DNA of 60,544 nucleotides from Hormoscilla sp. (GTDB lineage Bacteria > Cyanobacteriota > Cyanobacteriia > Cyanobacteriales > Desertifilaceae): NCBI GenBank assembly GCA_051439505.1, contig JBFRWI010000144.1, forward strand, positions 1 to 60,544, in the 5' to 3' direction. The position numbers were made by a program, and so were the translations under genes. Position 1 is the first letter of the stretch. The number at the start of each line of letters is the position of its first letter. The notes under the pieces are model-generated. The model saw only the letters and a program-made list of their open reading frames with translations, did no database searches and was not told where the DNA came from. Of this stretch, positions 13,854 through 20,043 are shown in pieces.

Positions 13854-14325
13854 CCCGGTGAGGAAATCATAATTGATGAAAGCCTACAGTTAACGATCTC
13901 GGGACGATCTCGACGATCGGAATTAGAGGAGATCGTCATCTGGTTGGCGAAGATAATGAGGTTGAAAAATTAGAAATGATGCGATGTGGTAATTGCTCTT
14001 GACAAATAAGAAATTAACTGCTATTGCGGGCGCTGAAGATGTGGGAAACAAAGTTCAGCGGCCCGGTTGTCATATGGTTTGGTAGGAGAAAAAGGCGATC
14101 GACGGAAGATATTTGCGTGTTTTTACAGAAAAAAGATTATGGCAAAACTATCCGGATAAAAAAAGCTCGGGGAAGGAAAGGCTAACTAGACAAGCAGAAA
14201 AAATTAACCCCCTGAGGAATTAAAATAGATACAGTCGAGAAGTTTTGATACTTGAGAAAGCTCAAAAAGCGGTTCAGATGGACTCTGGTTAGTTTATACT
14301 AAAACAATCAAGCAAGAGAAGTGAT

Positions 14326-15012
14326 ATGGCATCAACGATAGGTATACAAGGCACTCCATTACAAGTAAAAACCCGCGTCCTGCTGACATTGTGGGACATG
14401 GAACCCAATGGGGAGAAAGTGAAGAAAAGTGAACTGATTCAGAAAAGTAAGCGGAGTAGGGAGAAGGCTGGAGACTATAAGGGCATTTTACAAGAATTAC
14501 TCGAAGCTGGGGCGATCGCGCTCGTCACGGAAAAGCGCGTGGCGAAGGTGTCCCTGACAGAGAAAGGTAAGCAAATTCTCGGGGAAGGTCTGAAAAACCC
14601 GGAGTTTTGCTTTGAGGGCAATCAAGTTGGCTCAAAGGTGGTGAATGCGGTGCTGAACTGGTATCGCCAGTCCGATGTTAGTGCAGTAACTGCGCCAGTG
14701 ACAGAGAAATTGGAGGCCAAAGAGGGGGCGATCGCCTCTTTTGAAGACTTCAAGTCGAAAGTCCTGGCCCTGTTTGAGAAGCTGGACAAAGGTTACAACT
14801 ACAGCGGACTTGTCCCCATTTGGCATCTGCGTCGGGAACTAGGAGAGGGCGTCGGTCGCGAGGAATTTAACGAATGGATGATGGAAATGCAGGCGCAGAA
14901 GTTGTTCTATCTGCAAAGCGGCGAGGCCCGTGGAGCTACTGATGACCAGAAGCAAGATGCAATTACCAGTGAAGTCCGAGGACTTTTGTTTTACGCTAGC
15001 CAACCATCTTGA
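14326..15012 (+). CDS. Two-domain probable winged-helix protein, gene 1 of a 3-gene operon
   Basis: N-terminal MarR/PadR-like pattern (LQELLEAGAI...VSLTEKGKQIL) and a C-terminal helical domain (LVPIWHLRRELG...EFNEWMMEMQ). Confidence 0.65.
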   Translation: MASTIGIQGTPLQVKTRVLLTLWDMEPNGEKVKKSELIQKSKRSREKAGDYKGILQELLEAGAIALVTEKRVAKVSLTEKGKQILGEGLKNPEFCFEGNQVGSKVVNAVLNWYRQSDVSAVTAPVTEKLEAKEGAIASFEDFKSKVLALFEKLDKGYNYSGLVPIWHLRRELGEGVGREEFNEWMMEMQAQKLFYLQSGEARGATDDQKQDAITSEVRGLLFYASQPS

Positions 15013-15028
15013 ACTACGGAGAAAAAAC

Positions 15029-16870
15029 ATGAGCGATCTCTATAAGCTGTTTGCCGAGGCCCGTCAGGAAGGACCAAATCCTTTTCGACTGGAAACGGTG
15101 ATCTCCGATCGAGAGATTTGGGGTGATGTGTTGACTGACCTTCCCAACCTGAATCGGGATATTGATGACAAAATATATCAGGCAATTTCTGAGCTGCGCC
15201 AACAAGATTCCGGCAAGATTGGTATTGCCATCGAGGGCGATCGCGGAACGGGGAAAAGCCATGCCATCCATCGGATCTGGAAAAATATTGAAGGGGAAGG
15301 GGGGGCAGTATTTGCCTACATCCCTCCCTATACAAATCCCCGTATGATTAACTCTCATGTCCGGTTCTATCTGTGCGAGAGTTTCAAGCATCAAGACCGA
15401 CAGGGTGCCAGTCAATGGCAGAAGCTGTCTGCGGCAGTCATCGCTACGTTAAAAGGCACGGAATTTGAACAGGAGTATCAAGAATATTTGGAACTGGTCG
15501 ATCGGCCAGAAAATCTCAGAAAATATATTAAGAAAACGATCGGCAAAGGCAAAGATGATTTGCTCGATTGGATGATGGATCTGGTTGACTGTATTGTCGA
15601 AATTAAGCCGGAACTGGATCCTGATTTTGTCAAGGCAGTCTTGTTCTTGCTGTTCAAGAACGATCGCTACGCTCAGGCGGCGTTAGCATGGATTAAAGGA
15701 GAAGATCACCCCAAGATTAAAGATTTACTGGGTTTGCCTGAATATTCAATGGAGGTACAAGATGAAAGGTCTATCTGGATGATGGAGCAGATCTGCAAAG
15801 TTGCTGAAGTTGCTTCTTTACCTGTGCTGATTTGCTTTGACCAGTTAGATAGTGCTGAACCAGATCCTGAGACTGGTGATAGTCCCGCACAAACAGTGGC
15901 TAGGTGTATCGATCGCATCTATTTGCAGTGCAGCAATTTGATTGTTCTGTGTTGCGTCATCAGCGATACCTGGAGGGAAATTAAGCAAATGGGAAGTGGC
16001 ATCCCCGATCGGGTGGGTCAAAGGTCGGTAATGGCCAAACCTCCGACAGACGAACAGATGATAGAGATTGTCCAAAGCAGGTTGAATTGGTTTTACCGAA
16101 AGCACAATCTTCAGGCGGAAGACTATCCGGATTTATATCCTTTAGAGTCAAGTAAAATTAGGAATATTGCCCGGGAAAATGCCAGCGTTCGTTCTCTGCT
16201 GGAAACCTGCGCCCAAATATTTGAGGCCGTGGAAGTCGATAAGCAAAGCTTAGTCGGAAATGAAGGAGACAATATCCAGAAAAAATTCATGGATATTTAT
16301 CATGACATCCTCCAGCGAGTTGATGATACCATGAAGGATGATTACCATCTGGCTGATGACAATCTAGCAGCAATTATCGCTCAAAACATCAGAATGCTTC
16401 CTGAAGGAGGAACGGCATTTGTGGTTGTTAATCAAGTTGAAGAGGTTAAGAGTTCATCCCACGATATCCAGTGTACTATATCTGGGTACGATCAATTTCG
16501 CGAACAGCAAGTGAAAATTGGGGTAAAAGTTTGTGAAACTGAAAATGGAAACAGCTTTAATGCAGTGATGAAGCGACTGCTGAACTACGAAAAACATCAG
16601 ATAACCCGTAATTGTTTATTGCGTCATCATGAAGTGCCGAAAAAATGGAAGAAAGGTAAACAGCTTGAGCAGGAACTGGTGGCGGAAAAAGGCGGAAAAG
16701 TGGTTATTTGGAAACGAGAAGAAATCTTGCCTTTAGTTGCGCTCAAGAGAATCTACGATGAAGCAGAGGAATATGGCTTTGCTAAAGAGGAGGTAAGCAA
16801 TCTCGTCAAGGAGTTAAAATTAGAGGTTGACAATCAATTAATTCATCAGATTCTCAGGGATGTAAAATGA
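15029..16870 (+). CDS. P-loop (AAA/STAND-like) ATPase, gene 2 of the operon
   Basis: Walker A GDRGTGKS and Walker B LICFDQLD. Start moved to ATG 15029, which has a GGAG RBS and lies 16 bp after the upstream stop. The stop overlaps the next start (ATGA). Confidence 0.8.
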   Translation: MSDLYKLFAEARQEGPNPFRLETVISDREIWGDVLTDLPNLNRDIDDKIYQAISELRQQDSGKIGIAIEGDRGTGKSHAIHRIWKNIEGEGGAVFAYIPPYTNPRMINSHVRFYLCESFKHQDRQGASQWQKLSAAVIATLKGTEFEQEYQEYLELVDRPENLRKYIKKTIGKGKDDLLDWMMDLVDCIVEIKPELDPDFVKAVLFLLFKNDRYAQAALAWIKGEDHPKIKDLLGLPEYSMEVQDERSIWMMEQICKVAEVASLPVLICFDQLDSAEPDPETGDSPAQTVARCIDRIYLQCSNLIVLCCVISDTWREIKQMGSGIPDRVGQRSVMAKPPTDEQMIEIVQSRLNWFYRKHNLQAEDYPDLYPLESSKIRNIARENASVRSLLETCAQIFEAVEVDKQSLVGNEGDNIQKKFMDIYHDILQRVDDTMKDDYHLADDNLAAIIAQNIRMLPEGGTAFVVVNQVEEVKSSSHDIQCTISGYDQFREQQVKIGVKVCETENGNSFNAVMKRLLNYEKHQITRNCLLRHHEVPKKWKKGKQLEQELVAEKGGKVVIWKREEILPLVALKRIYDEAEEYGFAKEEVSNLVKELKLEVDNQLIHQILRDVK

Positions 16871-18324
16871 GTATCCAAATCACCAGAGGGATTCAACTGT
16901 CAGCTTTTGATGTGGAAATGCTGACCTCGGGCCGGCTAATTGCGGTGCCCTTCAAGCAGTACCGAAAGAATGGCGAAATATTCTGGCTTTATCCCAGTCA
17001 GCAACTGCCAGATAATCTTAGTTGGGAGCAATACTATCAGCCGGAATATTTAATTAAGGCTGAAATTTCATTAGCAAAATGTCAAACATATCCCCTGCAA
17101 ATTGAGGTTTGGGGACGTTGCGAAGAACATTGGCATGTTACCCCAGAGCAAAGGCATCTTTTACCTCAGATTGCTGCCTCAACGGTCTGGAATTTGACGG
17201 CCTTGGAATATATGTTTGAACGGCATCAAGTTCTCAAGCTGTTGTTTTTGCGAGTCTATCGTTTGTCCAGTCCTTGTCTGGTTAAGGTACCTCCTAAACC
17301 AGCTCCTTTCTTCTTCCCTCAGTCGGAAGATGTGATGACCATGGCAGATACTACGGATATTCCAGTGGTCTCGGAAGCCAGTTTTAACAGGCGTAAAGCT
17401 CTTTTGTTGGCGGGAGAGGTTCATCCCGATCGGGACTTGGAGCTGTTGGAACTGCAAGTTTCCTCCATGAACTGCGAAAACTCTGCTGTTCGACAGTTTA
17501 TCTCGGATATTAACGTATTTTTGGGAGGGACTGGGGAGACGGTAACGCCGCAACCCGATCGGGATAAAGATTGGATTGAGCAAATTGCGGCTGTGGGCAA
17601 TTCTAGCGATGGCAATGAGTTTGAAAAGCTAGTGCGCAAAGGTTTGATGCTGCTGGGATTTTCTAATGATAACAGTAATCCCCAAATCAGTCTGGATCCG
17701 GAGGCAACGGGGGGCGCTGGGGGTTTAGACTTTTATTGTGCGTCTCCCTATCCCGTGGTGGGTGAATGTAAAGCAACGAAAACGGAAAAGGTGCCGGATG
17801 GAACGGCTGCACAGTTAATTAAGCTGGGCTATAAGCACCTTCAGGAAAGGTATGATGATTGTGTTAAGTTAATTATCGCGGCTGGGGAACTAACGCCAGC
17901 GGCTCGCCAAACTGCTGAGGGGAACAAAATAAGCGTGATTAGTCCGGAAATTCTGCAAGGTATGGTAGAAATGCAAGCTAATTATCCAGGTTCTATTGAT
18001 TTGATGAAGCTTAAGGAATGCTTGCAAGGTGCTTATGGTTTGGCTGACGAACATCTGGCACGATATCTGCAACAGATGCGCGGCGAAATTGAGTTGCGAT
18101 CGGGCATTGTGGAGTTAGTGAAAAACTACTTGGAAAACTCCAATTCTGAGAGTGCGGGGGTAGAAGCTTTACATGGTGCTTATTTTAGTTCTCACCCGCC
18201 TCAGTCATTAACTACAGAACAACTGCAAGAAATTTTGATTGAACTTTCCTCCCCCCTAACGGGTTATTTGGGTAGGAAGGGCGATCGCTTTTATTTCCTG
18301 CGCCCTTTGTTGATGGATGCTTGA
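16867..18324 (+). CDS. DUF1802-like domain fused to a PD-(D/E)xK restriction-type endonuclease domain, gene 3 of the operon
   Basis: The N-terminus FWLYP...LLFLRVYRL...PVVSEASFNRR follows the DUF1802 pattern. The C-terminus has FEKLVRKGL..LGF, GGLDFY and VVGECKAT, an Mrr-like E..D..ExK set. Confidence 0.75.
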   Translation: MSIQITRGIQLSAFDVEMLTSGRLIAVPFKQYRKNGEIFWLYPSQQLPDNLSWEQYYQPEYLIKAEISLAKCQTYPLQIEVWGRCEEHWHVTPEQRHLLPQIAASTVWNLTALEYMFERHQVLKLLFLRVYRLSSPCLVKVPPKPAPFFFPQSEDVMTMADTTDIPVVSEASFNRRKALLLAGEVHPDRDLELLELQVSSMNCENSAVRQFISDINVFLGGTGETVTPQPDRDKDWIEQIAAVGNSSDGNEFEKLVRKGLMLLGFSNDNSNPQISLDPEATGGAGGLDFYCASPYPVVGECKATKTEKVPDGTAAQLIKLGYKHLQERYDDCVKLIIAAGELTPAARQTAEGNKISVISPEILQGMVEMQANYPGSIDLMKLKECLQGAYGLADEHLARYLQQMRGEIELRSGIVELVKNYLENSNSESAGVEALHGAYFSSHPPQSLTTEQLQEILIELSSPLTGYLGRKGDRFYFLRPLLMDA

Positions 18325-18352
18325 GGTATATAACAGGCATCTTGCATGTTTT

Positions 18353-18864
18353 AGGGGCACTATATTGGGCGATCGCATATCGTCGGGACAGGATATTGGG
18401 CGATCGCATGTGACCGGGGCACGGCGCGAGTAACATTATCATCTTCACCGATAATCTGCTGATGCCGTGCCCCTACAGTAATTCGCGATCGGCCATTTTT
18501 TTATTTAAGTGCTGACAGGCGATCGCCCGACATAACAGAAATTATTAAATATCTTGACCTGACCAGTATTGTAGGGGCACGGCATCAATAACATAACTAT
18601 ATTAACCAAAATATATCTATTGCCGTGCCCCGGCCCGACATTGGCGATCGCATCCCGGCAGTTCCGAAGCGATCGCATGGGGGCCGGGGCACACAGTCCA
18701 TTGGCGATCGCATGGGGCCGGGGCACGATATTGGGCGATCGCATGGGGCCGGGGCACGGCGGTACTAACATTATAATCTGAACCGATAATCTGCTGATGC
18801 CGTGCCCCTACTGAACATTCGCGATCGGCCAGTTGAAAATTTAAGTGCTGACAGGCGATCGCCT
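18353..18864. repeat. Mosaic of GGGGCACGGC/GCCGTGCCCC palindromic (REP-like) units and HIP1-containing short tandem units
   Basis: A ~130-bp direct repeat (~18398-18527 vs ~18733-18863) flanks an inverted REP copy at ~18571-18635. Several GGCGATCGCATGGGGCCGGGGCAC units are present. Confidence 0.8.
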
Positions 18865-18865
18865 C

Positions 18866-19015
18866 TTACAAAGCCTGAAATTGTTCCCACAACCAAGTCC
18901 CCACTTGAGCTTGATCTTGTTCGCGACTGCGGCGTAAAGCTTCTGCCAATAACTCGACGGACAACCCAGGCAAAACCCGAGACTCAGTAATGCTTCGACT
19001 GCCACCACCAGCAAA
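18866..19015 (-). pseudogene. C-terminal fragment of a Uma2-like (DUF820) endonuclease gene
   Basis: The minus frame reads FAGGGSRSITESRVLPGLSVELLAEALRRSREQDQAQVGTWLWEQFQAL*. The 5' part is replaced by a REP-like repeat at ~19016-19041. Confidence 0.6.
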
Positions 19016-19165
19016 TAGCTAAAGTCGGTTGAAAACCGACTAAAAATAATATAGAACAATATTGCGATCGCTCTCGATTGATTATCATAAGGGAGTAAAG
19101 AGATCGCCTCTTTTTTCTGATTCCCCGATCGCCCGTACAATAGTTGCCACATGGCTCATTATCCT

Positions 19166-19648
19166 TCATTCCGCTGCATCTGCGCTGGACAAAAAAGTAG
19201 CGAACTCTAGCAAGTCTGAACGAACTTGGAAAAATACATTGGGGGCCTCTTCTACTAAGGGCTGTATTCTAGTTACATCAAGTCGAAAAGGGTAAATATT
19301 CCGTACTATATGACGGAATGCGCGATACTCTTCTAAAGCCTCGCGACTACTCTGAGAAATCACAGCAGGGCGAGTTCCTGACTTTTCTACTGCCATTTGC
19401 TGTAGTAGCGCCTGATGCCAACCGGGACCTTGAGGCAGGGTTTCGTCGAGTGCCTTAGCAGTTTCCTGAAAAATTTTTTCTACTCCATTGTAGAAACTGT
19501 GTAGGTTTAATGCTACCGTATCTAAGAAAAGGTGATTGGATGACTCTCCGAAGAGTTGCCAGGCATCCTGCGTGCGTTGAATTACCTGTTCTATATTTTC
19601 CAATTCCTTAGCTATCTGCTGTCTTAGTTCTGTATTTTGTTGACTCAA
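19166..19648 (-). CDS. HEPN-domain (DUF86/HepT-like) RNase toxin
   Basis: LHSFYNGVEKIF, WHQALLQQM, RPAVIS and YRAFRHIVRNIY motifs; 4-bp overlap with the upstream MNT gene. Confidence 0.85.
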   Translation of the reverse strand: MSQQNTELRQQIAKELENIEQVIQRTQDAWQLFGESSNHLFLDTVALNLHSFYNGVEKIFQETAKALDETLPQGPGWHQALLQQMAVEKSGTRPAVISQSSREALEEYRAFRHIVRNIYPFRLDVTRIQPLVEEAPNVFFQVRSDLLEFATFLSSADAAE

Positions 19649-20043
19649 ACTTCAACTCCATCCTTTTCAATCAACTGCCACAACCAGGGGCTGCAAATTT
19701 TTTGGTCTAGCATCTCTACTAAGAATTCTGAGCTGCTAGTCACTTGCCCCATTGCCTTAAAATAGACACGATCTGGAATTCCCCAAACTGCTAATTCTAT
19801 GTCGGCGTTGGGGTTAAAACCAGTCCGATCGAGCAGCGATCCAAATACCACTACTCGTGTTGCTCCATATTTTTCGCGCAGTAGGTTGGCGAGAGTGCGT
19901 GCGAATTCCCAGGCTTGCTTTTGTCTTGCTTGCTTTGGATCTATGCGCTTCTGAAGCCGCTCGAAAAGCTGGCGTTGTTCCTCTGAGGATAGGGTTTCGA
20001 CTGCTGTCACGACTTGCTCCAATGCGGATGTTTTGGTTTTCAT
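19645..20043 (-). CDS. Minimal nucleotidyltransferase (MNT) antitoxin
   Basis: YGATRVVVFGSLL...ADIELAVWG motif; lies directly upstream of the HEPN gene. Confidence 0.85.
   Translation of the reverse strand: MKTKTSALEQVVTAVETLSSEEQRQLFERLQKRIDPKQARQKQAWEFARTLANLLREKYGATRVVVFGSLLDRTGFNPNADIELAVWGIPDRVYFKAMGQVTSSSEFLVEMLDQKICSPWLWQLIEKDGVEV

Follow-up and report, generated by a model that had tools for sequence, protein, structure and literature searches.

The closest described relatives of the operon studied here were predicted in one sentence (section 22) by Rakesh, Aravind and Krishnan (2024, PMC10853773), who, in the part of the text available to us, combine an Orc/Cdc6 ATPase, a restriction endonuclease (REase) with a fused ASCH domain, and a triple winged helix-turn-helix (wHTH) protein that is DndG-like, and who independently proposed a role against selfish elements. 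Similar parts occur in other systems. Type IV (modification-dependent) restriction enzymes (MspJI, VcaM4I, HhiV4I, DpnI-type) hold a PUA-fold domain, a nuclease and a winged helix (WH) in one chain, SspBCD and BREX cores (SspC, BrxC or BrxD) join an Orc/Cdc6-clade ATPase to a wHTH subunit (PMC10853773, same part), and Avs/STAND proteins link a switch-type NTPase to a nuclease. Here, we analyse a three-gene operon (the trio) at positions 14,326 to 18,324 of a 60,544-nucleotide stretch of Hormoscilla sp. DNA (assembly GCA_051439505.1, contig JBFRWI010000144.1; the window), which encodes a two-domain winged-helix protein (gene 1), an Orc/Cdc6-type ATPase (gene 2) and an ASCH-nuclease-WH protein (gene 3). 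We establish its anatomy and conservation, and find that its modules are swapped between alleles and that it is replaced at the same chromosomal positions by defence-type genes.

Compared by the description in the accessible part of PMC10853773, the trio shares the Orc/Cdc6 ATPase and the ASCH-fused REase. The FtsK-linked sister systems described there carry an inactive REase after the AAA+ domain, which the topology and lost catalytic residues of the gene 2 tail fit, and that sister type (Orc/Cdc6 + exonuclease-REase-FtsK + wHTH) was also found here. The differences are that the wHTH partner is described as triple and DndG-like whereas gene 1 has two domains, that the trio ATPase lacks an evident C-terminal WH while gene 3 ends in one, and that the described neighbourhood is mobile whereas the trio occupies a fixed slot. 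The operon, which a preliminary description took to be undescribed, thus appears to belong to a type already predicted. What is new relative to the text available to us, which gives no host range either, is how the slot behaves, that alleles are exchanged in modules and that phages bear copies. No description of the trio was found in the available parts of PMC12839542 and of bioRxiv 10.64898/2026.10.19.760177. The trio fits no named system of PADLOC-DB 2.0, in line with the preliminary description, with stray weak matches only: at most 2 of 22 family members match any PADLOC model (E value 1.7e-5 or weaker), and NCBIfam and PDB sequence searches gave no membership for the trio proteins. Unlike BREX, Ssp and Dnd, it has no linked modification enzyme, PglZ or helicase in the gene maps, with single weak PADLOC matches only, and none of the PADLOC models for DndG or SspB matches its wHTH gene. 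It shares the nuclease domain fold of the type IIS enzymes FokI and BspD6I (Z 12-14.5) but lacks a methyltransferase, carries DNA-binding WHs on a separate protein and adds an ATPase. In contrast to Avs/STAND proteins (Avs3, Z 12.0), it has no tetratricopeptide repeat (TPR) sensor and keeps its effector on a separate chain; the Avs2 model matches 2 of 22 members at E 3e-4.

In the window the operon is real and intact (Table 1). The genes are co-oriented, with 16 bp between genes 1 and 2 (15013-15028) and an ATGA overlap between genes 2 and 3, as first described. A longer gene 2 frame with a GTG start at 14930 was rejected, homologue starts giving it no backing. The nearest named relatives are three Hormoscilla metagenome-assembled genomes (ATPase identity 87-90%), and dN/dS values of 0.39, 0.19 and 0.29 against the closest of them indicate purifying selection on the trio. 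In two of the three the ATPase frame is interrupted, in one case by a single base within a run of G, possibly through faulty assembly. Upstream homology to relatives begins at 14242, so that 84 bp before gene 1 are shared, among them the candidate promoter of Table 1, and no operator-like motif common to families was found upstream of gene 1. Contigs of two RNA libraries from related strains span all three genes; as they may be DNA, they are no proof of transcription.

Both domains of gene 1 have weak WH matches, a profile comparison of its N-terminal domain (gene-1N) with its C-terminal domain (gene-1C) gave no match, and in the FtsK sister systems the homologue of the gene is the longer wHTH gene (hhalign probabilities 89 and 97). 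For gene 2, the AlphaFold2 model (predicted local distance difference test score, pLDDT, 89.5) places the AAA+ domain closest to Cdc6/Orc1 (2qby; Z 14.5, root-mean-square deviation (rmsd) 3.6, 237 residues aligned), followed by TnsC (Z 14.3), MuB (13.6), BrxC (12.9) and Avs3 (12.0), with a best Foldseek E of 2.7e-4. Both Walker motifs had been called intact. This holds for Walker A (G70-x4-GKS77); in Walker B (hhhhD271-Q272-L-D274) the canonical Glu is replaced by Gln. DQ occurs in 10/10 alleles of type I, the window's type, and in 57/58 rows of A5, whereas DE occurs in 44/47 other alleles, and the DQ form suggests slow, switch-like hydrolysis for the window's allele. From their positions, R328 and R388 would be the arginine finger and sensor 2. 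The gene 2 tail carries Gly498 where Glu is presumed, and residue 500 is variable, so its catalytic residues are lost. No structural or profile match was obtained for it, and a profile comparison with the nuclease gave none either. No Orc-type WH is evident in the C-terminal part of gene 2; the idea that the gene 3 WH is the displaced Orc WH of the sister ATPases found no profile support (hhalign probability 0.4) and was dropped.

Gene 3 (model pLDDT 87) has three domains, and structure comparison including Foldseek upholds the reading made from the sequence of an ASCH/PUA-like fold, a PD-(D/E)xK nuclease and a wHTH. The ASCH fold retrieves ZmASCH (probability 1.0 at E 0.014), TRIP4 and YqfB in Foldseek and aligns to CXorf40A with Z 8.1 (rmsd 4.3, 146 aligned). 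The nuclease motif, described as intact, is invariant in 111/111 aligned homologues (E253, D288, E300-x-K302). In the ESM Atlas, genes 1 and 3 lead to cyanobacterial clusters only, and REase leads are weak (<0.9). In line with the claim that there is no cognate methyltransferase, none recurs in gene maps of the slot, and none was recognised among the window neighbours, where the HEPN/MNT pair was scanned and the other neighbours were named from their sequences.

Among 401 genomes of the phylum, the ATPase was matched in 99 genomes and gene 3 in 86, nearly all single-copy and 72 of them at E 3e-88 or better (hand count). Gene 3 is present in 66/71 genomes of genus g5, whose proteins resemble those named Microcoleus, and was matched in 5/5 genomes of the window's own genus. 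For family f6, whose members resemble those named Nostoc, Dolichospermum and Calothrix, gene 1 was matched in 267/301 genomes; by hand count some 237 of the matches are full length, although an intact trio is not thereby proven. A full gene 3 occurs in 1/225 genomes of 12 pooled unrelated families. Of 83 loci retrieved through similarity to the ATPase, 64 hold the trio in co-orientation, among them every one of the 60 that were fetched first and scored best; the arrangement is therefore not due to chance, and the trio first proposed from a single sequence is conserved across genomes. The remaining 19 loci comprise 8 sister systems (a wHTH gene, an ATPase and an exonuclease-PD-(D/E)xK-FtsK gene, in many cases with ParA), 5 distant ATPases and 6 loci with other surroundings. 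Searches of plasmids, phages and viral contigs did not find gene 3, and gene-1C was not found in plasmids. The trio sits at fixed slots flanked by housekeeping genes, which we take from their sequences to be secG/gpmI in g5 and fpg/psaE/ndhS to pgi in f6. Thus, the accessory patch initially seen around the operon is not its typical setting: the trio is near-core in filamentous cyanobacteria and lies in a fixed housekeeping slot.

Within this slot, the alleles are strikingly diverse. Swapping was analysed on 57 intact trios including the window (six with a split ATPase and two cut by contig ends were dropped), with a careful tree for gene-1N and FastTree and quick trees for the rest. Among 13 g5 genomes, median identity is 91-94% for flank proteins and 94% for gene-1N, but 43% for the AAA domain, 43% for the tail, 66% for ASCH, 46% for the nuclease and 54% for WH; 59/78 g5 pairs fall below 60% identity in AAA and 52/78 in the REase, and alleles of 24-45% identity coexist within one genus. 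The gene-1N tree tracks host lineage, with g5 as one clade (support 99/97), whereas a single g5 clade is rejected by approximately unbiased tests (18 rows) both for AAA (p 4e-4) and for the nuclease (p 1e-28). In four type I/II pairs compared, DNA homology ends at base 468 of gene 1 and restarts inside gene 3. Synonymous divergence (dS) is about 0.1 in shared modules, whereas values for swapped ones run from 0.5 to saturation, a pattern more in keeping with old alleles having moved in than with rapid point mutation. On the trees of gene-1C, AAA, tail and ASCH, a single branch sets type I (10/57 trios) apart (1 change); on those of gene-1N, nuclease and WH it needs 8 changes. In four genomes the modules are freely combined: L040 and L043 have the block of gene-1C, ATPase and ASCH in common (88-97%) but not nuclease and WH (46 and 39%), L043 and L048 the nuclease (75%) but not the block (25-40%), and L040 and L048 the WH (83%). 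A genome of the window's own genus, G659, combines a type II ATPase (28% identical to the window's) and ASCH (about 31%) with a nuclease and WH that are 85-91% identical to those of the window. By these alignments and trees, gene-1C, ATPase and ASCH swap as one block between divergent alleles, and nuclease and WH swap separately.

The slot also exchanges the trio for other genes. Gene-1N often remains as a stub after core replacement, and the last codons of the gene 3 WH often persist as a right-hand stub. We inspected 30 loci picked because they retain a stub of gene 1 or gene 3 or lack gene 3, and 14 of them have defence-type genes of six kinds beside the stubs: a retron reverse transcriptase (RT) with a Schlafen-TPR gene (3 loci; RT at E 1e-115 or better), BnzB with a PDC-M09A-like partner (Bunzi-like, 3 loci, E ~1e-61), a PDC-S28 helicase (2 loci, E 1e-275 or better), an SNF2 helicase (4 loci, the three in g5 being 58-59% identical to the one in f6), a GajA/OLD-like ABC ATPase (1 locus) and a NACHT protein (1 locus). 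Eight of the 14, namely those with retron RT, BnzB or PDC-S28, have PADLOC E values below 1e-60. In two cases (L154, L155) the site is an additional one, the genome having an intact trio as well. Clean deletions of the trio were seen at L137, L138 and L153. With six kinds of cargo at the same stubs, defence is the most economical reading, so the proposal of a defence role, made from gene content, now has support from replacement.

We accordingly regard a role in defence of some kind as likely. More specifically, we give a probability of about 0.5 to the reading that the trio is an ATP-gated DNA-cleaving defence against phages or other invading DNA, kept in a fixed slot and diversified by whole-module exchange. 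The Orc/Cdc6-type ATPase would oligomerise on DNA, as ORC, TnsC and MuB do; gene 1 would act as a two-WH adaptor with its C-domain matched to the ATPase, and the ASCH domain, matched to the same ATPase, would dock gene 3. FokI-type catalytic domains need dimerisation, and the oligomer may pair those of gene 3 to cut invader DNA or, abortively, the cell's own. Gene-1C, ATPase and ASCH would thus form a sensor block, and nuclease and WH an interchangeable effector. A complex prediction for the ATPase with gene-1 residues 130-228 scored 0.16, which is evidence neither for nor against binding.

Several points weigh against this reading. Defence systems are not usually near-core and single-copy in a setting of housekeeping genes. 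In 16 of the 30 stub loci there is no defence-type cargo (4 have suffered loss or deletion, 2 contain genes without annotation, 2 hold longer homologues of gene 1, 2 have a damaged trio, 1 has a prophage and 5 give no information), and the count of 14 comes from loci selected for stubs, includes kin that are not independent and has no PADLOC baseline from the flanks of intact loci. Simple physical linkage could account for gene-1C, ATPase and ASCH being inherited together, although the breakpoints lie within genes 1 and 3 and close to domain borders. Finally, the window proteins belong to no PADLOC-DB 2.0 (2023) model (best E 0.017-0.056), and no experimental test of the operon was found in the literature searched, which covered few subscription papers.

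The nearest competitor, for which we see a modest chance, is type IV restriction, as first suggested, in which a modified base in invader DNA is read by the ASCH domain or a WH, with cleavage close by from the nuclease and assistance from the ATPase in the manner of McrB. The trio has the make-up of such systems, a PUA-fold domain and WH fused to a nuclease with no methyltransferase recurring at the slot, and PUA-family and WH domains are known readers (PMC11037411, in the part available). W82 and W108 of the ASCH domain are conserved (57/57 and 54/57), and one ATPase allele of 811 aa (L095:4240-6672) carries the C-terminal domain of SeqA (E 7e-5), which hints that methylated GATC, a sequence contained in HIP1, might be sensed. 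On the other hand, a role of ASCH as an N6-methyladenine reader is unproven, and the HhiV4I PUA domain senses no modification; the type IV enzymes studied, as far as the accessible text goes, are ATP-independent single chains (PMC11037411), whereas the trio nearly always has two partner genes and a degenerate reader pocket. The KEW, RKGG and GCxSW motifs of stand-alone DUF1802 proteins (n=9; KEW 9/9, R/KKGG 8/9, G/SCxSW 9/9) are missing from 7/7 fused domains, and ASCH is inherited with the ATPase, not with the nuclease.

Two further explanations fit the data less well than invader-directed DNA cleavage, and we hold each to be improbable. That the trio is a housekeeping module for DNA repair, replication or recombination in filamentous cyanobacteria would agree with its near-core, single-copy presence, fixed slots, ORC-like fold and lack of matches in plasmid and phage collections; it is hard to square with such divergent alleles in one genus, with deletion or replacement by retron, Bunzi-like and PDC-S28 genes in other species, and with absence from most unrelated families. 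A selfish or domesticated transposon-derived cassette, in which a TnsC/MuB-like ATPase and a nuclease are kept by addiction or homing rather than by host benefit, is brought to mind by the TnsC and MuB matches, which tie with Cdc6, and by the location of the trio in the window's genome (G000), where the psaE-fpg site occupied in three relatives is empty and the block 14242-18326 is found elsewhere. Speaking against it, no transposase, recombinase or terminal repeats were seen in gene maps or repeat analysis, the trio is single-copy in nearly all genomes and was not found on plasmids or phages, and clean deletions of it exist.

Copies of gene-1C also occur in phages. The best 150 of 374 representatives include 41 proteins of at least 250 aa that have gene-1C without gene-1N; 32 of these hold it at least twice and 39 give their best score with type II. 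Scanning of 26 showed one fusion with a portal plus InPase, one with a ferritin-like domain and one with a telomere resolvase. The domain also occurs at residues 743-826 of a portal protein (1266 aa; L149:5286-9083) from a Mu-type prophage, and the isolated phage PaV-LD carries it twice in ORF078R, five genes after the major head protein; several viral copies lie in head-gene regions. Thirteen IMG/VR loci, several near-identical, have the domain, 12 of them in tandem, and within the DNA examined none has the trio ATPase or nuclease. Viral copies share 46-64% identity with the common type II allele and 35-47% with type I, and a quick 92-column tree places them among or beside trio alleles, apart from the sister systems, with at least 4 changes. 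Since portal and InPase fusions are known as virion-delivered conflict proteins (PMC5512222, in the part available), mimicry is a lead, and the viral copies could be anti-defence mimics; the rival is a generic DNA-binding WH reused in phage heads. A bolder and distinctly tentative proposal joins these threads: a near-universal immune locus of filamentous cyanobacteria with allele exchange would use its conserved ends as landing arms for defence cassettes, head-packaged tandem gene-1C mimics would jam the matching ATPase, and the window's type I DQ allele would be an escape allele.

Table 1. Genes, domains and neighbouring features of the trio in the window.
Feature	Position	Strand	Evidence
Candidate sigma-70-type promoter TTCAGA-16-TATACT	14273..14300	+	consensus match only, 9/12; 3 sites found vs 1.0 expected
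Gene 1	14326..15012	+	228 aa
Gene 1 N-terminal winged helix (aa ~12-115)	14326..14670	+	weak WH matches: Pfam E 0.005 and 0.07; RIO2 wHTH E 0.55
Gene 1 C-terminal domain (aa ~136-228), probable second WH	14731..15012	+	MCM4_WHD in 2/26 homologues scanned, E 4e-5 and 3e-4
Gene 2	15029..16870	+	613 aa counted from ATG
Gene 2 Orc/Cdc6-clade AAA+ domain	15029..16228	+	Walker A K76, Walker B D271-Q272, R328, R388
Gene 2 C-terminal domain (aa ~412-613), probable inactive REase fold	16262..16870	+	element order alpha-beta-beta-beta-alpha-beta-alpha-beta
Gene 3	16867..18324	+	485 aa
Gene 3 ASCH/PUA-fold domain (DUF1802)	16867..17361	+	Pfam E 1.3e-13, residues 13-177
Gene 3 FokI-like PD-(D/E)xK nuclease (E253, D288, E300, K302)	17563..18066	+	FokI Z 14.5, rmsd 3.7, 150 aligned; BspD6I Z 13.7 and 12.3
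Gene 3 C-terminal winged helix	18073..18324	+	many WH matches Z 8-10, including the C-terminal domains of ORC, Cdc6 and MCM
Two ~335-bp copies of a dispersed HIP1-rich repeat (miniature inverted-repeat transposable element-like or repetitive extragenic palindrome-like)	18344..18863		flank, outside system; up to 85 genome matches per position
Broken 3' fragment of putative Uma2-like gene	18875..19051	-	flank; E 4e-10 to an ORF on contig C225
MNT-HEPN pair	19166..20043	-	unrelated neighbour; not recognised beside the trio in other mapped loci

In three Hormoscilla records the trio comes after psaE-fpg; in the window's genome the block is placed after purN. A horizontally acquired island was considered and found no support, as GC content is 44-50% against 48% for the genome and HIP1 sites are present. 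The flanking repeats form a tandem pair with inverted ends and are perhaps tied to relocation of the block. Of the neighbours initially reported, a Uma2-like relic and a HEPN/MNT pair, the broken frame and the HEPN gene (HepT-like match, E 1.8e-34) are borne out, while the MNT partner has weak matches only and the relic is only presumably Uma2, a name based on its motif and not a Pfam result. Contig C9 of the same genome holds a paralogous cassette in the order ATPase, wHTH gene, ATPase with no adjoining nuclease (L007:7410-12504), and L052 has the order ATPase, wHTH, ATPase, ASCH-nuclease.

Other loci add variants of the trio and its surroundings. In L152 (6241-7068) gene 3 has lost its nuclease domain in frame, joining ASCH to the WH end, and L132 has an orphan second gene 3. 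Distant ATPase relatives of 630-840 aa (L109:5499-7877, L110, L112, L118, L119) include two with an N-terminal exonuclease domain, these being the two scanned. Proteins of 301-336 aa with a gene-1N-like end and no Pfam or PADLOC match lie beside fpg/ndhS (L139:2736-3638, L141:10458-11465, L148:11716-12693) and are a possible fourth component in some genera. In f6 loci (L037-L134), gene 3 is often followed directly by a tandemly arrayed pair of genes for proteins of 105 aa and 120 aa, of which the latter is weakly aspartyl-protease-like.

Among the cargo, a stand-alone retron-type RT lies behind a Schlafen-TPR gene at L133:3606-5988, L140:3316-5826 and L146:10494-13006 and is closest to type XI/XII/I-C models; the gap of 200-600 bp between the two could hold a noncoding RNA. 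Bacterial Schlafens are reportedly antiviral (PMC13056530), and RT plus Schlafen-TPR is possibly an undescribed retron-effector pairing. The SNF2 helicases are about 1085 aa long and fill the slot in two host families (L158:9864-13133, L159:2611-5877, L160:819-4067, L151:8121-11366), that of L158 having a weak PLD-like match; they are a candidate single-gene defence system. The slot may thus serve as a discovery tool, in that genes between two stubs are candidate defence systems.

The operon apparently occurs in many bloom-forming, soil-crust and heterocyst-forming cyanobacteria, where, in the searches made, it has neither a name nor a PADLOC model. The phage copies offer a ready counter-defence hypothesis, and if the proposal of head-packaged mimics is true, a gene-for-gene arms race would be readable from sequence. 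If the trio is a defence system, it would provide a direct test of whether ASCH domains read modified DNA, would be among the commonest defence systems of such cyanobacteria, and may limit DNA transfer into these hosts.

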